From Acidimicrobiales bacterium (GTDB taxonomy: Bacteria; Actinomycetota; Acidimicrobiia; Acidimicrobiales; SZUA-35), in contig JBLINY010000002.1 in assembly GCA_047638695.1 (NCBI GenBank), positions 11 through 64,010 of the forward strand: a stretch of 64,000 nucleotides of DNA. The letters run 5' to 3'. The notes under the pieces were generated by a model. It saw only the letters and a program-made list of their open reading frames with translations, did no database searches and had not been told where the DNA came from. This document shows positions 38,948 through 64,000 of this stretch, piece after piece (within the stretch, counting starts at the first letter, position 1; each line of letters opens with the position of its first letter). The translations under genes were made by a program, and so were the position numbers.

Positions 38948-40702
38948 TCACACCCGGGGTGGATCGATGGCCACGCGCACCCGACCCTTTGGCCTTTCAA
39001 GGCTACAAAGAACATCTGCCAAAGTGTCGGGGTCGGCAGCCCGCACCAGGTAGCGGCCATCAGGTCGAGGGCCCATCACATTGACCTCGCCAACACCCGG
39101 GCCGGAGACCAGCGGTTCGAGAAGCTCGGCGGCTGCCGCACCGCTCACTTCGGCCAGGGCCCCGTACGGCGGGAAGCCCATGCTCTGTCGTATGGCCAGC
39201 TCTTCGGTGACAAATCGGTCGGTGTCGCTACGAACGGCTGCCGTGACCACCCGATGCTCAGGGGTTCGGGTCTGCAACATGATTCGACCACCACCGGCTC
39301 GGCTACCCACCAAGCGAGCAGCTCTGACCACGAGTCCCATAGCCTGTTCAGCCGTCCGGTATCGGGTGGCCAAAAGCTCCTGATCGAAGTCGAGAAAACA
39401 CACCGCATCGGCGACATGCACTCGATGCAGCAGCGCCTCAGTGCCGACCATGATGCGGAGACGTTCGATATCGGCGGCAGATGTTTCGGCGGTCAGCTCG
39501 CCTACCGGCTCGCCCGCAAGTACCTCGAGTTCTTCCCGTGCTCGGTTTACGCCGAGACGTAACCGTTTCAGTTTTGTTCCCGAGCAGTTGGCACACACGA
39601 GCGGTCTGCGCTCACCGCTGAACGACACCAGCTCACCATCCATCTCGGCCATCAGCTGGTTGCCATCTTCGGTGCGTACTAGTTCGCCACATGACGCACA
39701 GGCCAGCATCTGGGCCCGACCTTTGCGGTTCAGCACACACAAGACTCGACCAGGTGAACGAACAAGATCGACGAGCTCCGACGAGAACAGTCCCGGCTTG
39801 CCGGGATCCTCCTGACGGCGGTCGACCACCTGCACCAGCGGCCATCCGGCTCGCTCGTCGCTACGCGACAGCGAAAGCACTCGGTCCGCAGCCCCAATGG
39901 CAGCGGCGCTGGGCGCGGCGGAGACCAGGACGCAGGGCACTCCGGCGCGCCGGGCCCGTTCGACGGCCACATCCCGGGCGTGCCATGTCGGGTTCCGTTC
40001 TTCCTGAAGTGACTCGTCGTGCTCGTCGATGACCAACATGCAACCGAGCTGGGGCACGGTGGCCCAAACCGCAGATCGAGCCCCGGTGACTAACCCTCCG
40101 GTTGCGCCGAGCGCCCAGTCTCGGCCGGCCAGCGCTATGCGGCCGCCGGCTCGCCGGTAGCGGGCTCCGTTGAAACGAGCGTCAGCAACTCCCGGCATGA
40201 CGATGATGGCGTCGCCACAGCTGGCGGCTGCGGCATAAAAGGGCAGGAGGTCGGTATCGGGTGCAACCCGCACCACGGTGACACCCGGTTTCGAGACAGC
40301 TTCGGCTGCGAGGGCAGCCACGGGGTCAGCGAGATCTGTTGGCACGACCCGCGCCGGGGCCGGCGGGGCGGGCAGGAGATCGATCATCTTGTCGGGCGAA
40401 GCCGTCTTGAGGATCGAAGCGAGTCGACCTCGCCATCGATGCCCGGCCCAGCGGGCGAGCTCGATGACCTCGGCTGACGGGCCTACTGACGACACCTTGG
40501 TGATCTCCCGTAGCACCACGCCCTCAGGCGGCTCCACGTCGGCGGCCACAACCCAGCCAGCTACTCGCCGGTTGTGCAGCTCGACCCGAACCAGCGAACC
40601 GACATCGACAATGTCGGCCCACCGCTCGGGGGCTAGATAGTCAAACTCTTTGTCGAGCCCCGATACGTCGGGGACCACCCGAACAACTCGAGGCATGCTC
40701 AC
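38948..40702 (-). CDS. priA: primosomal protein N' (PriA) homologue, apparently without a Walker A P-loop
   Basis: 584 aa. N-terminal VVRVVPDVSGLDKEFDYLAP, a DEHD box (LVIDEHDESLQEE) and Cys-rich CASCG...CANCSG. I see no GxxGxGK[ST] motif anywhere. Confidence 0.85.
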   Translation of the reverse strand: MSMPRVVRVVPDVSGLDKEFDYLAPERWADIVDVGSLVRVELHNRRVAGWVVAADVEPPEGVVLREITKVSSVGPSAEVIELARWAGHRWRGRLASILKTASPDKMIDLLPAPPAPARVVPTDLADPVAALAAEAVSKPGVTVVRVAPDTDLLPFYAAAASCGDAIIVMPGVADARFNGARYRRAGGRIALAGRDWALGATGGLVTGARSAVWATVPQLGCMLVIDEHDESLQEERNPTWHARDVAVERARRAGVPCVLVSAAPSAAAIGAADRVLSLSRSDERAGWPLVQVVDRRQEDPGKPGLFSSELVDLVRSPGRVLCVLNRKGRAQMLACASCGELVRTEDGNQLMAEMDGELVSFSGERRPLVCANCSGTKLKRLRLGVNRAREELEVLAGEPVGELTAETSAADIERLRIMVGTEALLHRVHVADAVCFLDFDQELLATRYRTAEQAMGLVVRAARLVGSRAGGGRIMLQTRTPEHRVVTAAVRSDTDRFVTEELAIRQSMGFPPYGALAEVSGAAAAELLEPLVSGPGVGEVNVMGPRPDGRYLVRAADPDTLADVLCSLERPKGRVRVAIDPPRV

Positions 40703-40792
40703 CAGTAGAGCCTAGGCACCAGTTACAAAAGTCGGTGACACCCGAATAGCAAAGCGAAAGGAACCCACCCCAAAAAACAGAGCAACCAGAGA

Positions 40793-41020
40793 GGCTGCGC
40801 CGCGGAGCAAGCAGCTCAACAAACGACACCCAGATGGCGAAGCGGAAGAGCTACGCCCGACCCAATATGAAGGCTGCGCCGCGGAGCAAGCAGCTCAACA
40901 AACGACACCCAGATGGCGAAGCGGAAGAGCTACGCCCGACCCAATATGAAGGCTGCGCCGCGGAGCAAGCAGCTCAACAGTCGACACCCAGATGGCGAAG
41001 CAGGAGGGCGCCAGCCCGAC
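40793..41020. repeat. about 79 bp tandem repeat, 2.9 copies, filling the metK-priA intergenic region
   Basis: GGCTGCGCCGCGGAGCAAGCAGCTCAAC recurs at 40793, 40872 and 40951. The two copies nearest priA are near-identical. The copy abutting the metK stop (41021-41023) is diverged and 80 nt long. Confidence 0.9.
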
Positions 41021-42220
41021 TCAAAGAGACAGTGCGCTCTTCACCTCGTCCACTTTGTCGGTGCGCTCCCAGGTAAAGGAGTTGCCGTCTTCGCGGCCGA
41101 AGTGGCCGTAGGCCGCAGTGGTGGCGTAGATCGGCCGGCGCAAGTCGAGGTGATCGAGGATGGCGGCGGGTCGAAGGTCGAACACGTCGTTGACGCATGC
41201 AGCGATGGCTGCCGGATCGGCGTTCTCGGTACCGAAGGTCTCGACCATCACCGACACGGGGCGAGCAACACCGATGGCATACGCGACCTGCACCTCGCAG
41301 CGATCGGCGACGCCAGCTGCGACCAGATTCTTAGCGACCCAACGAGTGGCGTAGGCAGCGGAGCGGTCGACCTTCGATGGGTCCTTGCCGGAGAAGGCGC
41401 CTCCGCCGTGGCGGGCCCAGCCGCCGTAGGTGTCGACGATGATCTTGCGACCGGTGAGACCAGCGTCACCGACTGGACCACCGATAACAAAGCGACCCGT
41501 CGGGTTGACCAATACTTCGTACGGGTCGTCAGCGAACTCGGCCGGGATCACCGGTCGGATGACATGCTCGATGAGATCGGGCCGAATCATGCTGTCACGG
41601 TCGATGCCATCGTCGTGCTGAGTTGAGATCAGCACGGTCTTCAGACGAACCGCTTTGCCGTCTTCGTAGTCGAAGGTGACCTGCGTCTTGCCGTCGGGAC
41701 GGAGATAGGGAACCGTGCCGGCGCGGCGCACCTCAGTTAGGCGCTCAGCCATGCGATGCGCGGTGTGAATCGGCAGCGGCATCATGGCTTCGTTCTCGTT
41801 GGTGGCGTAGCCAAACATCATGCCCTGGTCGCCGGCACCCTGTTCGTCGTAGAGATCGCCGGTTGCCCCGGTGTCACGGACTTCTTCAGATTTGTCGACG
41901 CCCTGAGCAATGTCGGCCGACTGTTCATCGATCGCAACCATGACGCCGCAGGTGTTGCCATCGAAGCCGTACGACCCGTTGTCGTAACCGATCTTCGTGA
42001 TGGTCTTACGAACGACCGAGGGGATGTCAACATAGGCCTCGGTGGAGATCTCACCAGCGACGATGGCAAGGCCTGTGGTGACCATTGTCTCGCAAGCGAC
42101 TCGACTGTTCGGATCCTGTTCGAGCAGCGCATCAAGGATGCTGTCCGAAATCTGATCAGCCATCTTGTCGGGGTGACCTTCGGTGACCGACTCAGACGTA
42201 AAGGTAAAGTTCTCGCTCAC
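41021..42220 (-). CDS. metK: S-adenosylmethionine synthase
   Basis: 399 aa with [20 protein letters not shown] and [16 protein letters not shown]. Confidence 0.98.
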
Positions 42221-42253: not shown

Positions 42254-43492
42254 TTACGATTTAGTGGCTGACGGGCGCGCCGATACGATGTCGAGAACGG
42301 CTCCGGCAACTTGATTTTTGCCACGCAGAGGCACATGGACGACAGAGCCATCTGCCCCATGGATCGTGACTTCGTTGGTGTCGTGGGCAAAGCCGACGCC
42401 GGGCGCTGAGACATCGTTGGCCACGATGAAGTCGGCCCCCTTGCGCGCGAGTTTCGACCTTGCATTGGCCGCGAGATCATTCGTCTCGGCTGCGAACCCA
42501 ACAAGAACCTGACCAGCCCGCTTTTGCGAGCCGAGACCGGCCAAAATGTCGTTTGTTGGTTCGAGGACTATCTGGGGAACGCCATCGGCCTTCTTGATCT
42601 TCTGATCAGCTTGCTGAGCGGGCCGAAAGTCGGCAACGGCGGCAGCCATGATGATGATGTCTGCGGTGGCAGCCACTTCGTTAACGGCTGCTTCCATTTG
42701 GGCCGCAGTGGTGACCTGAACGACCTCGATGCCAGCCGGCACCGGCAACTCGACGGTACGGATCAGCGTGACCGTGGCCCCTCGCCGGTGGGCCTCGACC
42801 GCCAACGCGTGACCTTGCTTGCCAGTAGAGCGGTTACCGATGTAACGAACGGGATCGATTGCTTCTCGTGTTCCGCCTGCGGTCACGACTACCGAGCATC
42901 CGGCAAGGGGTCGATCCCCGACAAGGGTGGCGACGACTGTCTCGACGATCCGTTCGGGGGCAGCGAGACGACCTTTTCCTATGTCGCCGCCGGCCAGGCG
43001 ACCCTCTTCGGGGGGTACGACAATGACGCCGCGGTCGGCTAACACGGTCAGGTTCTCTTGCACCGCCGGGTGGTCCCACATCTCGGTGTGCATCGCCGGA
43101 CACAGGACGACCGGGGCTTCGGTCGCGATAAGTGTTGCCGACAGAAGATCGGCCGAGCGTCCAATGCGATAGTCGGCCAGGACGCGCGCCGTTGCCGGGC
43201 AGACAACGATGAGATCGGCGGTCTGTCCCATTGTCGTATGCGGTATCGGGTCGGCGTCGGTCCAAAGACTGGTCTTCACTGGCTCAGATCCGAGCGCTGT
43301 AAACGTGGTTGGACCCACCATGTTGAGCGCAGCGTCTGTAAGCACTGGCACCACATGGGCGCCCAGATCGACCAACCGTCGCATGACTTCAATCGACTTG
43401 TAGGCGGCAATACCGCCCGTGACGCCTAGAACAACTCGTTTACCCAACAGGCTCTTGGACTCCATCGAGTCTGACATGAGCGAGTCTGACAT
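42254..43492 (-). CDS. coaBC: bifunctional phosphopantothenoylcysteine decarboxylase / phosphopantothenate--cysteine ligase
   Basis: 412 aa, with GKRVVLGVTGGIAAYK flavoprotein N-domain and a CoaB C-domain. The start is ambiguous because of an MSDSLMSDSM duplication. Confidence 0.95.
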   Translation of the reverse strand: MSDSLMSDSMESKSLLGKRVVLGVTGGIAAYKSIEVMRRLVDLGAHVVPVLTDAALNMVGPTTFTALGSEPVKTSLWTDADPIPHTTMGQTADLIVVCPATARVLADYRIGRSADLLSATLIATEAPVVLCPAMHTEMWDHPAVQENLTVLADRGVIVVPPEEGRLAGGDIGKGRLAAPERIVETVVATLVGDRPLAGCSVVVTAGGTREAIDPVRYIGNRSTGKQGHALAVEAHRRGATVTLIRTVELPVPAGIEVVQVTTAAQMEAAVNEVAATADIIIMAAAVADFRPAQQADQKIKKADGVPQIVLEPTNDILAGLGSQKRAGQVLVGFAAETNDLAANARSKLARKGADFIVANDVSAPGVGFAHDTNEVTIHGADGSVVHVPLRGKNQVAGAVLDIVSARPSATKS

Positions 43493-43504
43493 GAGCGAAG
43501 ACGA

Positions 43505-54663: not shown

Positions 54664-56283
54664 TCAGCCGGCGAAGTACTCGTTGGAGCTAGCCAACACG
54701 GCCGCAAGACGAAGATCATCACCGGACTTGAGCACGTCGGCCCAGTAGGCAAGTCCGGCTGCGTCGGGGGCACGGTTGAGGAACTGCAAGTACATCGCCG
54801 CCACTCGCGCTTCGCGACTCTCCCGCGATTGGTAGAAACGGTAGGCGACGGTGCCCGTTCCGATGCTGCCGGCTTGGCCCGTCCAATAGCTTCGGCCGCC
54901 GTTATCGGCCGATCGATCGAGGAGCACGCCATAGAGATCGACCACCCATGCGTCGTAGGTGCCCCCCTGAAGGGTCACGTACTCCCGACTGCCATAGAAA
55001 GAGGCTGCTACCTGCGCCACTGACGACCCGGTCTGGAGCCTAGAGATCCAGTACTGGCTACCCGAGCGGTCGCCCGGCCGGCCCAGGGTGTCGATGTAAA
55101 GCTGGTCGACCACGTTGGCTGTCCAGGCCTCACTTACGGCGAGAGCCTGCACGAAGTTGAACCGAGTAGTTCCCGTGGCCAACCGCTGTGTCCAATACTC
55201 GAGCTCGCCTGCAGTCGGGTTGCGGCCTACGAAGTCAGCGAACGAGCGAGTGACGAAATCGTTGTAGACCGCTGGTGAGATGCCGCCGGCAGCGGGGGTG
55301 TCACCGAGGATCACGACGTCATAGCTGAAGCTTGCGGGGTTGCCACCGACTCGCGCACCATCAACGGTCACCCGGTAGGTGAGATCGACGGTCGGATGCA
55401 GGTTCACGCCGACTGGCTCCCACACCAGGATGGGGAACGGGGCGCTGTTGCCAGCTGAGTCGCGATGCACAACGGTGCTGGAGATCGGTGACCCATCCTG
55501 CGAAATCGAGACGGTTGCGGCGGAAAAGTCGCCGTTGCGGATACCAACTGACCAACGGGGAAAGACCAACTCGCCTGGGACGAATCCACGAGGTGGCCAG
55601 GCAACAAAGCCCTCACTCTCACGGAGTGTCGGCTGGGCGCCGAACACATTGTCAAAGACCCACAGGGTGTTGGACGACCAACCTCCGGTGGCCGGAATGT
55701 CACCGGTTCCCATCTGATTCGTCGTTGGGTGCAGGATCCAGTTGCGATGTCCGACCCGGAGGTTGTTGCTGCCCGGGTCTTCCATATAGCCGGTAATCGA
55801 CTCGGGGCCGGTTCGGCCGAGATAGAGATCGCTCGATTGGGCCGCCTGGGCGCCGCTGGCGGTGTAGCAGGCAAAGCTCGAGTCGGGGGAGTGACTCAAA
55901 CGTCCGCTGGCGCTCATCATGAGGGCCGCTTCTTGAGCTTGGGCTGACCAGGCGGGGTTCTCGGTTATGCCGGCCGGCACGCCCGCCATCGACCGGAAGA
56001 AGTTGACTCGACTGAAGATTGCGTCCCGAAATTCCTGTGACGTTGTTCCCGGGGTACAGCTCGACCGATCGCCGTTCCAACCGCTGCTGGGCGACGGTGA
56101 GCCGAACTCCGACTCGTAGGCCGCCACGACGGCACTCCGGTCCTGTGTGTTCAGCCAGTTCGACGCGGCATTGGCTGAGTTACTTCCGACGGGCCCGACA
56201 CCGGCAAACGATGCGGTGAGTAGAAGAAGAAAGGAGAAGAGCCGGAGAGACCTCGATCGGAGCACGACTGTGTTGTCGTCCAC
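54664..56283 (-). CDS. secreted CAP/SCP-domain protein with C-terminal DUF4214 repeats
   Basis: Signal peptide (LFSFLLLLTASFAGVGPVGSNSANA). CAP-like FRDAIFSRVNFFRSMAGVP...SGRLSHSP. There are four DUF4214-like units (for example LYIDTLGRPGDRSGSQYWISRL and FLNRAPDAAGLAYWADVL). An alternative start is GTG 56265. Confidence 0.8.
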   Translation of the reverse strand: MDDNTVVLRSRSLRLFSFLLLLTASFAGVGPVGSNSANAASNWLNTQDRSAVVAAYESEFGSPSPSSGWNGDRSSCTPGTTSQEFRDAIFSRVNFFRSMAGVPAGITENPAWSAQAQEAALMMSASGRLSHSPDSSFACYTASGAQAAQSSDLYLGRTGPESITGYMEDPGSNNLRVGHRNWILHPTTNQMGTGDIPATGGWSSNTLWVFDNVFGAQPTLRESEGFVAWPPRGFVPGELVFPRWSVGIRNGDFSAATVSISQDGSPISSTVVHRDSAGNSAPFPILVWEPVGVNLHPTVDLTYRVTVDGARVGGNPASFSYDVVILGDTPAAGGISPAVYNDFVTRSFADFVGRNPTAGELEYWTQRLATGTTRFNFVQALAVSEAWTANVVDQLYIDTLGRPGDRSGSQYWISRLQTGSSVAQVAASFYGSREYVTLQGGTYDAWVVDLYGVLLDRSADNGGRSYWTGQAGSIGTGTVAYRFYQSRESREARVAAMYLQFLNRAPDAAGLAYWADVLKSGDDLRLAAVLASSNEYFAG

Positions 56284-56332: not shown

Positions 56333-56370
56333 TTCTTTCACGCAACTTCTTTCACGCAACTTCTTTCACG
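56333..56370. repeat. 14 bp tandem repeat TTCTTTCACGCAAC, 2.7 copies
   Basis: Copies at 56333-56346 and 56347-56360, plus a partial copy at 56361-56370. It lies in the nusB / CAP-gene intergenic region, 50-90 nt upstream of the CAP-gene start. Confidence 0.85.
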
Positions 56371-60313: not shown

Positions 60314-61900
60314 TCAGCGTTCGCTCTTGAGGTAACGCATCAGCAAGCTTCCGCCTTGCTCTTCGGTGGATGGGGCCTCGTCGCCCTCGGTATCGGCCAC
60401 GGGCTCGGCGCCCGGCATGACCGGGGCATCGTTAAGCGACTCACGGAACGAGTCGATCTCCGCGGGTGACGGCGGTGCCGGCATATCGCTGCCCATGGAC
60501 TCAGCGGCGAAGGACTCGACACCACTGACGTCCTCGATGCTGTCAGAAACGAACATCGGTTCCGACATGGGATCCAGGTCGGGAGCGCTGAAGTCGGGAG
60601 CAGCAGGAGCTTCGCTGAATACTGGGGGTGCCGGCATCGGCGGGCGCTCGGAACGGGGAACGGGCGGTGCAGCGGGCAGCTCATCGGTCATGCCGATCTG
60701 GGCGGCGGTCTCAACGGCACCGATAGAGAAGGGATCGTTTGTGTCAACCGAATCGGTGGTCGAGACCGAATCAGCGAAGCTCATCGGCTCAGGCTGAAAG
60801 GCGGCGAACGACGAAACGGCCTCCTCGATGAGATCATCAGGATCAGGGGCGGCGATTGGAGTCATTGCCCGACCGAAAGAGACATCGGCGGCTGGAATTG
60901 TTTCCTGCGCCATCGCTGCCGGGGCAGCGAACATCGAGTCGTCGACGGGCTCGGCCTCAAGCGCCAAGAACGCCTCGACGTTGGGTTGTGGCCGGGGAGT
61001 CGGGACGGCTGGCGGCTCGTCGGACACGTTGCTCCGGGTTGCGGCCTCGAACTTCGGCTCGGGCTGAGCGACCTCTGTGACCGGCTGTTCAATGGCAACC
61101 GGTCCGGTTTCAACAACCATCGCGGCGCCGGTCTGGGCTTCGTCGATCGCCAGCTGATTGCCGGCGATCTCGGCAACCGCTCGGTCGGCGACTGCCGGCG
61201 AGTGAGCAACAACTGGAGGGTCGGCAACCACTGGCTGGGCGACAACCATCTCGTCACGGACCATCGCATCACTGGCAGTTTCATCGACCCCGGACCGGGC
61301 AGCAACAGCCTCGTCAGCAACGGCCTCGTCAGCAACAACCGGGTCACTCTGCGAACGGGCATCCTCGTTTATGTCGAGCAGTTCTTGTTCGATCAGCTTC
61401 TTCAGCATGCGGCTGACGTCAACCTCGCCCAGCTCGAGATCCACCGAGACCTCGCGTACGGCGGCTCGTGAGCCGACCGTCACGAGCAATCTCCACTGCT
61501 CACGAGTGATCGTGACTTCATCGGCTGAAAGCTCGGGCCGTGGGGTCAGAATGTGGTCCATCGACGGCACAACAGCGGCGATCTCGTTCCACTCTTGTAG
61601 GCGCTCACCGGCTGTCGCCACCACCAAGTCGACGATCTGCGAGCTGCTCGGATCGTCCGAGTTCTCATCGGCCGTAAAAGAGAAGTTGCCGCTATTGAAC
61701 CGCATCAGCTCAAAGACTGAGTCCTCCACCGAGCAACCGGCAGCGGCGCCGAACGAACCATCGACGAGTTGACCGTCGTGGAGCCAGAGCGATCCAGTTC
61801 CCCGGTCGCCACTCACCCGCAGGCGACCTGTCTTTGAGGTCCCGGCCAGCAGGCCGAGAACCTCGTCGAGGGTAAAATTATCGAGCGAGCCTTGCAGCAT
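60314..61900 (-). CDS. DUF4388-domain protein with a long acidic P/A/V-rich low-complexity C-terminal region
   Basis: The N-terminus MLQGSLDNFTLDEVLGLLAGTSKTGRLRVSGDRGTGSLWLHDGQLV matches DUF4388 (PATAN-associated). The remaining 350 aa or so are low complexity, with VADEAVADEAVA and VVAQPVVADPPVVAHSPAVAD. Confidence 0.7.
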   Translation of the reverse strand: MLQGSLDNFTLDEVLGLLAGTSKTGRLRVSGDRGTGSLWLHDGQLVDGSFGAAAGCSVEDSVFELMRFNSGNFSFTADENSDDPSSSQIVDLVVATAGERLQEWNEIAAVVPSMDHILTPRPELSADEVTITREQWRLLVTVGSRAAVREVSVDLELGEVDVSRMLKKLIEQELLDINEDARSQSDPVVADEAVADEAVAARSGVDETASDAMVRDEMVVAQPVVADPPVVAHSPAVADRAVAEIAGNQLAIDEAQTGAAMVVETGPVAIEQPVTEVAQPEPKFEAATRSNVSDEPPAVPTPRPQPNVEAFLALEAEPVDDSMFAAPAAMAQETIPAADVSFGRAMTPIAAPDPDDLIEEAVSSFAAFQPEPMSFADSVSTTDSVDTNDPFSIGAVETAAQIGMTDELPAAPPVPRSERPPMPAPPVFSEAPAAPDFSAPDLDPMSEPMFVSDSIEDVSGVESFAAESMGSDMPAPPSPAEIDSFRESLNDAPVMPGAEPVADTEGDEAPSTEEQGGSLLMRYLKSER

Positions 61901-62045: not shown

Positions 62046-62849
62046 CTAAGCCGGCGTGCGTAGGGCGGCCGTCATCACGTCAATTGGCGCCGACTCACCC
62101 GTCCAGAGTTCAAATTGAAGCGCGGCCTGATGGACCAACATGCCAAGGCCGCCAAGCGTTTTCACCCCACGAGTGGCTGCCGCATCAAGCAACGGTGTGA
62201 GCTCGGGTTGATAGACGATGTCTACCACCAGCTGTTGGGCGCCCAGAACTTCAGGGTCGAGGGGCAGTGCGTCGGGCGCCGGCCCGCCGTCCATACCAAC
62301 GGCCGTGGCGTTGACGATGACATCGACCTCGGCAAGGTCATCAGGCGTACCGACGGCGGCAACATCACTTGCCTCCGCGGCATCTTCGGCCCGTGATTGG
62401 GTTCGGTTGATCACCAACACTCGTTCCGCCCCCGCCGCTCCGACGGCGTGAATAATGGCCCTCGCTGCGCCCCCAGCACCGAGCACGGCGACCCGCGCTC
62501 CCGATAGATCAATGCCAGCGCCGTGCGCTACCGAGGCGACGAAGCCTGCTCCATCGGTGTTGTGGCCGACCAGCATGTCCCCGTCGCGGGCGACGCAGTT
62601 GCACGCCCGCAGCCGCGTTACTGCCTCGGTCTGACGATCAACATTTTGGGCTACGACTTCCTTGTGAGGCATGGTCACTGACAGCCCGTCGATCCCAAGG
62701 GAACGCATGGCGTCGAGAGCAATCGCTCCCGAGCCTGCGGCGACTGGCAGCGCGACGTACACCCAATCGAGTCCAACAGATGCGAACGCCGCGTTATGAA
62801 TGGCAGGCGACCGTGAGTGGCGTACAGGATCGCCGATGACAGCTGCCAG
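62046..62849 (-). CDS. aroE: shikimate dehydrogenase (start codon unresolved)
   Basis: The track ORF starts at GTG 62762, but the same frame upstream encodes the essential RLAAVIGDPVRHSRSPAIHNAAF motif. There is no ATG, GTG or TTG between the in-frame stop (62997-62999) and 62762. Candidate CTG starts are at 62849 (L-AAVIGDP) and 62963 (CTGA overlap with the mltG stop). Confidence 0.85.
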   Translation of the reverse strand: MAAVIGDPVRHSRSPAIHNAAFASVGLDWVYVALPVAAGSGAIALDAMRSLGIDGLSVTMPHKEVVAQNVDRQTEAVTRLRACNCVARDGDMLVGHNTDGAGFVASVAHGAGIDLSGARVAVLGAGGAARAIIHAVGAAGAERVLVINRTQSRAEDAAEASDVAAVGTPDDLAEVDVIVNATAVGMDGGPAPDALPLDPEVLGAQQLVVDIVYQPELTPLLDAAATRGVKTLGGLGMLVHQAALQFELWTGESAPIDVMTAALRTPA

Positions 62850-62875
62850 CCTCGTCCGGCCGCTGATCCATGCTC

Positions 62876-62964
62876 GCTCGGTGGTCAGCGGCTCGGTGGT
62901 CAGCGGCTCGGTGGTCAGCGGCTCGGTGGTCAGCGGCTCGGTGGTCAGCGGCTCGGTGGTCAGC
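62876..62964. repeat. 15 bp tandem repeat GCTCGGTGGTCAGCG, 5.9 near-perfect copies
   Basis: Units start at 62876, 62891, 62906, 62921, 62936 and 62951. On the minus strand the unit is CTGACCACCGAGCCG. The array contains the mltG stop codon and lies in the aroE reading frame, where it encodes (LTTEP)n. Confidence 0.95.
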
Positions 62965-64000
62965 AGAGCCCCTTCTCGACACAGATCGCCTTGGCTTCAG
63001 CGAATTCTTCGTCGGTCGTGGCAAAAGTGTGCAGGCCACTCGCGTCGGTGAGCACGTAGTACATGAATTCGGTCTCGGCCGGGTTGATCGCTGCCTCGAG
63101 CGAGGCTCGACCTGGCGCACCAATGGGTGTCGGCGGCAAACCGATGACGTTGCGACACCCGAAGGGATTGTCGGGAGCTTGCAGGATCTCGTTGGTGAGC
63201 TGGACCCGACGATCGCCGGCACCGTAGATGCACGTTGCGTCGATTCCGAGGGCCCATTGCTCGCGCAAGCGGTTGTAGATGACCGAAGCGACAAGTGGGC
63301 GCTCTTCGTCAAACTTTGCTTCCGCTTCGACCAGGCTGGCCACGACGAGAACTTCGTAGGCCGACCGGTTGAGCTGCGTTTCCGCCGCACCAAAACCGAG
63401 GTCGCCCGTAACGGCGGTGAACTGGTCGCTCATGCGCAGCAGCACGTCCAGCGCGGTGTCGTCGACATTTACCTCGTAGGTGTCTGGAAAGAACAACCCC
63501 TCCCAACTCTGAGAGTCGGGTGGGCGGTAGCGGGGAACGATCTGTCCCGAACCGAGCACAGCCCGAAGCTCGGACTCGGTGACATTGTCGAGCTGGCTGG
63601 CGATCTCAGGAAGCATCTCTTCGATCCAGAGGCCCTCACGGATAGTGAATCGCTGGTACTCCTGAGGGGTCGGTCCGAGATTGAGAACGGCGATGGCCTC
63701 CTCGGCCGAAGAGTTCTGTTGGAGGAAGTACTCGCCCGCCCCGAAGTTGCCCTCGCCCTTCCACTGCGCGAAGTAACGGAAGAACGTGCTGTTCGGAATG
63801 ATGTTCTCAGACTCAAGCTGGCGGGCGATGTCGGCCGTGGTTGCACCAACGGGCACGACGAGATCAACAACTTCACCCGGTTCGCCTTCAGGATCGAGCT
63901 GCGCCGCGAACCAGCCGCTGGCAACCCCATACAACCACCATCCGGCCAACAAAATGAGAGCGATGGCTACCAGGCCACGAAGGAACCGGAGGCCGGCGGG
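62960..64000 (-). CDS. mltG: endolytic transglycosylase MltG (YceG-like); 5' end beyond the right edge
   Basis: The frame is open to position 64000 (PAGLRFLRGLVAIALILLAGWW TM helix). YceG-like body with YFLQQNSSAEEAIAVL, FPDTYEV, LVVASLVEAEA and the family-typical PPTPIGAPG. Confidence 0.9.
   Translation of the reverse strand, partial: PAGLRFLRGLVAIALILLAGWWLYGVASGWFAAQLDPEGEPGEVVDLVVPVGATTADIARQLESENIIPNSTFFRYFAQWKGEGNFGAGEYFLQQNSSAEEAIAVLNLGPTPQEYQRFTIREGLWIEEMLPEIASQLDNVTESELRAVLGSGQIVPRYRPPDSQSWEGLFFPDTYEVNVDDTALDVLLRMSDQFTAVTGDLGFGAAETQLNRSAYEVLVVASLVEAEAKFDEERPLVASVIYNRLREQWALGIDATCIYGAGDRRVQLTNEILQAPDNPFGCRNVIGLPPTPIGAPGRASLEAAINPAETEFMYYVLTDASGLHTFATTDEEFAEAKAICVEKGLC

Follow-up and report, generated by a model that had tools for sequence, protein, structure and literature searches.

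Mycobacterial interspersed repetitive units (MIRUs) are repeats of 40-100 bp that are dispersed at many loci and apparently mobile. Simple-sequence contingency loci, such as those built on tetranucleotides in Haemophilus and Neisseria, place phase-variable repeats in the 5' part of coding sequences, and near-cognate initiation is known in bacteria from the AUU start of infC and from rare annotated CTG, ATT, ATC and ATA starts. Within each MIRU unit an open frame overlaps, through its stop and its start, those of the flanking genes (-4 spacing), so that expression is little affected when a unit is inserted or the array expands (PMC12548453). Here we describe a 15-bp tandem repeat at the junction of mltG and aroE in a 64,000-nucleotide stretch of DNA (the window) from an Acidimicrobiales bacterium (GenBank assembly GCA_047638695.1, contig JBLINY010000002.1, positions 11 to 64,010 of the forward strand). 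Like the MIRU form of variable number of tandem repeats (VNTR), it consists of tandem units between co-oriented operon genes of an actinobacterium, with a copy number that is polymorphic between strains, and the frame of its unit overlaps the stop of one flanking gene and a start, here non-canonical, of the other. The repeat coincides with the loss of every canonical start codon ahead of the conserved part of aroE, and we propose that aroE may initiate at a CTG overlapping the mltG stop.

A hypervariable 15-bp repeat between mltG and aroE

Both genes lie on the minus strand. The upstream one is the 3' part of mltG (62960-64000), which encodes a YceG-like endolytic transglycosylase: its PF02618 match (E = 1.2e-68) spans profile positions 2-273 of 275, its C-terminus ...CVEKGLC* aligns with the ...C(Q/R)ELGLC* of relatives, and no stop interrupts its frame up to the edge of the window at 64000, with the N-terminus beyond it; the full-length call in another assembly of the same organism (L082) is 450 amino acids long. 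Downstream lies aroE, encoding shikimate dehydrogenase, which as proposed here would occupy 62046-62963, beginning at CTG 62963 and ending with the stop codon 62048-62046. Its product matches PF08501 (9.7e-23), PF01488 (1e-8) and PF18317 (3.2e-16), with the Pfam Shikimate_dh_N domain beginning at V53 (VIGDP), and has all 57 invariant columns of the AroE alignment. The closest other AroE is only 70% identical, so that no sister species is available for comparison.

The array occupies 62874-62964 and was delimited with Tandem Repeats Finder, a pattern search and the sequence itself. On the minus strand it comprises five perfect CTGACCACCGAGCCG units (62889-62963) followed by a terminal unit that matches at 13 of 15 positions (62874-62888), all arranged head to tail; Tandem Repeats Finder reports 62876-62964 with a period of 15, 5.9 copies, 100% matches and 0 indels. 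Searching the window for the unit gave six matches against 0.48 expected, and six or more were reached in none of 100 shuffles. No other copy was found elsewhere in the 64 kb, and scans of metagenome-contig DNA for further alleles or sites returned 0 matches, from a collection that evidently does not hold the samples concerned. Two antisense open reading frames (ORFs) across the array (plus strand, 62800-63051 and 62817-63059) were set aside as mirror products of a repeat inside two well-supported genes.

In the aroE frame the unit reads LTTEP, in the mltG frame every unit contains a TGA, and the third frame reads ADHRA; each unit thus combines a stop for mltG with an in-frame CTG and a stop-free passage for aroE. 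The mltG frame ends ...GTC GAG AAG GGG CTC TGC TGA, with the TGA (62962-62960) inside the first unit, and the CTG at 62963-62961, in the aroE frame, shares its TG with that stop (CTGA, 62963-62960). From the in-frame TGA at 62999-62997 the aroE frame reads SQGDLCREGAL(LTTEP)5LTTERAWISGRTRLAAVIGDPVRHSRSP... The (LTTEP)n tract is distinct from the pentapeptide repeats of PF00805, which form a beta-helix from A(D/N)LXX units: a Pfam scan of the 316-residue translation including (LTTEP)5 returned AroE-related domains only. An earlier note, made from the letters of this stretch, had described about six near-identical 15-bp copies straddling the mltG stop, with the stop in the most upstream unit and (LTTEP)n in the aroE frame; the repeat searches and the sequence agree with this, and all of its factual statements are correct.

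The same note had predicted that the array would be a VNTR, and the junction as seen in related genomes bears this out. Through the cluster members of the deposited AroE (MFT7597270.1), four further assemblies of the same organism were available, three from metagenomes of the Joint Genome Institute (JGI) and one from ENA. The window has six copies; L082 also has six and, outside the array, matches the window at 100% identity over 2.2 kb; L083/L092 have seven, with 100% identity outside the array over about 4 kb; L081/L090 have three, with 100% identity over about 5 kb; and L084, with four, differs by nine single-nucleotide polymorphisms (SNPs) in 1.37 kb (99.3% identity). Copy number thus differs between near-identical genomes at the level of assemblies, and on these assembled sequences the array is a true VNTR, with 3, 4, 6, 6 and 7 copies in five assemblies. 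On the same comparison it changes far faster than point substitutions accumulate, because the counts range from 3 to 7 while the flanks are identical. The locus could serve as a high-resolution strain marker for this uncultured population, since copy number differs in genomes that have no SNPs over several kilobases.

Another 15-bp repeat in the window served as a control. It lies at the start of coaBC (43466-43498; perfect, 2.2 copies), and its copy number agrees across nine assemblies. On the minus strand it reads CGCTCATGTCAGACT; placed at the 5' terminus of the coding sequence for a 412-amino-acid protein (PF02441/PF04127), it produces an in-frame duplication around the ATG (MSDSL MSDS M...) and, in contrast to the aroE array, shows no visible polymorphism.

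Where aroE translation may begin

No in-frame ATG, GTG or TTG lies between the upstream TGA at 62999-62997 and GTG 62762. The earlier note had already remarked on this, correctly, and the sequence is the same in all five assemblies, which excludes a one-off sequencing error. The public annotation takes the GTG and records only 62046-62762, a product of 238 amino acids (MFT7597270.1, "MAG: shikimate dehydrogenase [Acidimicrobiales bacterium]", on a 106-kb contig). Such a start deletes the HSRSP motif, as the note had also pointed out, and the Pfam N-domain begins upstream of it, at V53. The domain boundary and the conserved codons described next exclude this start.

The nine codons before V53, which read ISGRTRLAA (62841-62867), are conserved as protein rather than as DNA. 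Compared with L007, a 60%-identical relative, they show eight synonymous codon differences and no amino-acid change; against L004 there are six synonymous differences and one amino-acid change, and against L017 seven and one. The pattern I/L-S/T-G-x-T-R-L-A-A-V-I-G-D-P is present in 26 of 26 homologues, with a Met 1-20 residues farther upstream. By this codon comparison the segment is under protein-level selection and hence translated, and the excess of synonymous changes therefore places the start at or upstream of ATC 62867. CTG 62849, which the earlier note had offered as one of two options, lies downstream of the ISGRTR codons and is excluded by their conservation across many synonymous changes.

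What became of the original start can be read from the tetranucleotide A-TGG at 62868-62871, identical in all five assemblies. The TGG (62870-62868, position -10 from V53) occupies the place where relatives start, with TTG in L007 and L004 and ATG in L010 and L003, and by this comparison the lineage has lost its canonical start. The earlier note had mentioned neither the match of this TGG to the start position of relatives nor the near-cognate ATC 62867. Joined to the A in front of it, the TGG yields an out-of-frame ATG (62871-62869), the beginning of a dead-end frame of 25 codons. Deleting G 62868 would restore ATG ATC AGC GGC (MISGRTRL, as in L010 and L003), and an assembly error hiding an ATG or GTG start was one of the findings that the earlier note had said would overturn its account; ATGGATC is the same in five independent assemblies, and we rejected a sequencing error. 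A programmed +1 frameshift from ATG 62871 is also implausible, because ISG follows that ATG immediately and the shift would be needed at the initiation codon itself.

The candidate we favour is the CTG at 62961-62963, in the CTGA overlap with the mltG stop, with a second in-frame CTG directly upstream (62964-62966). Five nucleotides upstream of CTG 62963, inside the 3' end of mltG, lies a Shine-Dalgarno (SD)-like AAGGGG (62969-62974) with a predicted anti-SD duplex of -8.9 kcal/mol, a value that ranks among the best 4.6% of positions in the window, and no ATG, GTG or TTG falls within its initiation window. The same calculation gives -4.1 kcal/mol for ATC 62867, -3.2 for CTG 62849 and -2.2 for the CTGs inside the repeat.

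The register of the overlap is shared widely among relatives. We took junctions from 80 related genomes, 58 of which have an mltG-like ORF upstream; in 45 of the 58 the stop is placed so that the preceding base and the first two bases of the stop fall in the aroE frame. These 45 junctions comprise ATGA (9), GTGA (11), TTGA (5), CTGA (14) and TAA or TAG stops (6), so that canonical four-nucleotide overlaps make up 25 of the 45, and the window junction, with its CTGA, shares this register. A co-oriented NTGA overlap is therefore present at mltG-aroE, and the coupling that it implies is a prediction. Four independent relatives (five loci: L002, L005, L039 and L085/L086), from Acidimicrobiia or Actinomycetota, have no canonical start that would keep the conserved segment (SGxTRxAAVIG), and in each of them the shared candidate is a CTG located at the mltG stop or beside it, with SD energies of -5.3 (L002), -9.2 (L005), -12.5 (L039) and -6.6 kcal/mol (L085/L086). 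The AroE of L085/L086 is 68% identical to that of the window, and its junction reads CTG CTA G, with a TAG stop; were the window array reduced to one copy, its first CTG would lie 17 codons before V53, as in L085. L041 resembles L039 (SD -10.6), except that a GTG stands three codons ahead of the core. These junctions suggest that CTG-at-overlap starts recur in Acidimicrobiia aroE, and of the two options in the earlier note they favour CTG 62963, as do the conserved register and the SD-like site.

An aroE beginning at the overlap would carry the translated array as an N-terminal tail. Long low-complexity AroE tails do occur naturally in the clade: L076 (JAPOUM010000017.1) and L014 have N-terminal tails of 30-36 residues, rich in Pro, Glu and Ala, that begin with a canonical start codon at the mltG stop (TGATG in L076), which argues that long extensions are tolerated. 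The unit also draws on preferred codons in the aroE frame (geometric-mean relative synonymous codon usage 1.77), more so than in the other two (1.30 and 1.19). In a further relative, L003 (CAVPHU010000001.1), the mltG frame apparently passes, by fusion or a shift, into that of aroE for several hundred codons, most likely through assembly indel errors rather than biology.

Based on these observations, we propose that the array arose by local duplication of the CTGA overlap between the mltG stop and the aroE start. mltG would always end at the TGA of the first unit, so that copy number would leave it untouched. Initiation of aroE would occur at CTG 62963, served by AAGGGG and/or by ribosomes terminating on mltG (translational coupling), and the array would be translated as a variable low-complexity (LTTEP)n tail, placing about 31 to 51 residues before the conserved ISGRTRLAAVIGDP core. 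Replication slippage could then shift copy number with neither gene broken, because the period is 15 and the mltG stop and SD-CTG context are fixed at the upstream edge. The functional effect of the array is probably small and the repeat near-neutral.

Competing accounts of the junction

Scans of the junction for other signals bear on these accounts. The octamer TCAGCGGC (62859-62866), in the aroE codons for I44-S45-G46, is the exact complement of GCCGCTGA, which forms at every unit-unit junction and is missing from the first unit (CTCTGCTGA). In the predicted mRNA fold (minimum free energy and centroid) the two pair in a helix of 8-11 bp that would cover ATC 62867; the same fold pairs GCCGCUGA, likewise created at unit-unit junctions, with UCAGCGGC at the ISG codons. 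This complementarity could be due to chance (p roughly 0.02-0.05) or be a trace of template switching at a quasi-palindrome. The fold stability of the whole region is not significant (z = -1.6), the only Rfam match at the junction was mir-1180 at 27 bits against a gathering score of 49 bits, with no match over the whole window, and scans for promoter-like and terminator-like sites at the junction found 0 and 0. On these scans a structured RNA, riboswitch, promoter or terminator at the junction was excluded.

Taken together, the comparisons leave initiation at the CTGA overlap with a translated (LTTEP)n tail at about an even chance of being right, and several points weigh against it. Initiation from CTG is weak in E. 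coli, the SD score stands out only moderately, relatives start one codon away from ATC 62867, and the arguments from codon usage and the open frame rest on a single 5-codon unit. In some relatives CTGA follows from a conserved Phe or Cys codon before the TGA, and in most of the CTGA relatives a canonical start is found within a few codons; moreover, the copy numbers come from short-read metagenome assemblies and not from reads. We found nothing useful in the literature on CTG starts in Actinobacteria. In E. coli, CUG and AUC each reach about 1-2% of the initiation seen with AUG (bioRxiv 10.1101/063800), so that neither candidate is strong, and overlap with a terminating ribosome is a known way for defective sites to work (PMC12548453). 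The near-equality of the two codons lends some weight to a start downstream of the array, at the near-cognate ATC (62867-62865), yielding fMet-SGRTRLAAVIGDP, with the array as an untranslated variable spacer whose open frame is incidental. This ATC stands one codon after the -10 start position of L007, L004, L010 and L003 (TTG or ATG followed by ATC...), TGG 62870 resembles a mutated TTG start, the corresponding -9 codon of L085 is a CTG, and a stop-free 5-codon unit in one frame is not unlikely. Against it, 37% of random positions score as well as its weak SD, the out-of-frame AUG four nucleotides upstream (62871) would presumably out-compete AUC for ribosomes, and the predicted GCCGCUGA/UCAGCGGC helix covers the AUC. 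Its distance from the mltG stop also varies from about 48 to 108 nucleotides across alleles, which would make scanning reinitiation strongly allele-dependent, and the relatives with only a CTG favour the overlap over the -9 position. We regard the ATC start as possible and rather unlikely.

(Re)initiation at the CTGs of several units could make the amplified CTGA module a heritable, rapidly reversible translational rheostat, in which added units add weak CUG sites or alter mRNA structure and compensate for the lost TTG or ATG; with 3 to 7 copies, subpopulations would then differ in how much AroE they make relative to MltG. The module is indeed duplicated in each unit, genomes that are otherwise identical differ in copy number and no canonical start is left, but the internal CTGs have almost no SD, and the existence of an array with a period that is a multiple of three is equally expected from neutral slippage. 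We consider such a rheostat improbable, both as amplification of start sites and as a means of control. Decay of aroE, with the repeat as neutral junk in a dead junction, would explain why the canonical start is absent in all five assemblies and why annotation pipelines called only the truncated 238-aa product. It is at odds with an ORF intact over at least 274 codons with all invariant family residues, with aroE SNPs relative to L084 that are synonymous in three cases and non-synonymous in one, with the presence nearby of other shikimate-pathway genes such as aroB and no aroE paralogue in the 64-kb window, and with a CTG-only arrangement common to several relatives. Judged from its sequence aroE looks functional, and decay strikes us as very improbable. 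Finally, de Bruijn assembly of a tandem repeat from short reads, and not biological alleles, could have produced the copy-number differences, the counts being known from assemblies and not from reads. Assemblers do break here: the contigs L083 (JGI) and L091 (Logan) begin in the array or 40 nucleotides from it, which suggests graph ambiguity and possibly heterogeneity within the sample. Yet the arrays, at 44-104 bp, are below typical read length and the largest k-mers; an array with clean flanks was resolved in five assemblies from two projects; L084, a distinct strain with nine SNPs, has a count of its own; and the 2-copy coaBC repeat was assembled identically in nine assemblies. We see little chance that the differences are artefactual.

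Annotation, neighbouring features and relation to known systems

The most direct consequence concerns annotation, as the deposited AroE (MFT7597270.1, 238 aa) has no substrate-binding N-terminus. Because the same CTG-only junction is present in L002, L005, L039 and L085, these data suggest that gene callers which accept only ATG, GTG and TTG produce systematic truncations of aroE in several lineages of Acidimicrobiia. Among database proteins, P0004 and P0111 begin "MIGDP" and P0019 and P0027 have only 245 residues; these may be similar truncations.

Several other features of the window were recorded. Directly downstream of aroE sits a 528-aa DUF4388/PatA_N ORF (60314-61900, minus strand), whose low-complexity middle (61207-61346) contains imperfect in-frame 15- and 18-bp repeats of 79-91% identity. 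Downstream of a prepilin peptidase gene (window position about 59046 and below), aroB is called at 295 aa in one JGI sample and at 341 aa in others (L081/L090 versus L083/L091/L092) though the compared DNA is identical, another start-codon ambiguity in the cluster. At 40792-41001 a 79-bp unit is repeated 2.7 times at 98% identity between the minus-strand genes 41021-42220 and 38948-40702, with no Rfam match. A perfect 14-bp repeat of 2.7 copies (GTGAAAGAAGTTGC, minus strand; 56333-56370) lies about 50-90 nucleotides upstream of the GTG of a 539-aa ORF (54664-56283) and could reflect promoter or 5' untranslated region spacing.

The locus is a real but fairly ordinary hypervariable repeat, compounded by an annotation error, and does not overturn current understanding. 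Its value is as a clean, small case of a junction repeat that could expand with no harm to either gene because its unit carries the upstream stop together with an in-frame downstream start: the logic of a MIRU, locally generated. The differences from MIRUs are equally plain. The array unit is 15 bp, it occupies a single site in the 64-kb window with none of the dispersal of a MIRU family, it would derive from the local junction, and its start would be CTG; by analogy, the array works like a MIRU but is not one.

With the ATGA, GTGA and TTGA termination-reinitiation overlaps the junction shares gene order, the register at mltG-aroE and an SD-like site in the 3' end of the upstream gene; it departs from them in that the overlap codon is CTG, the module is tandemly repeated and coupling is only inferred here. 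Contingency loci likewise have short, perfect tandem repeats where a gene begins, with slippage much faster than point mutation. The unit here is, however, a multiple of three that keeps both frames in all alleles, so that there is no ON/OFF frameshift and no phase variation of the contingency type, and the gene specifies a housekeeping biosynthetic enzyme rather than a surface or restriction function. As in near-cognate systems, no ATG, GTG or TTG is available, and CUG or AUC must presumably serve in aroE; unlike infC, aroE has no known autoregulatory logic, and near-cognate use is proposed here from comparative data. Viewed in this company, the array belongs to a class of in-frame junctional VNTRs.

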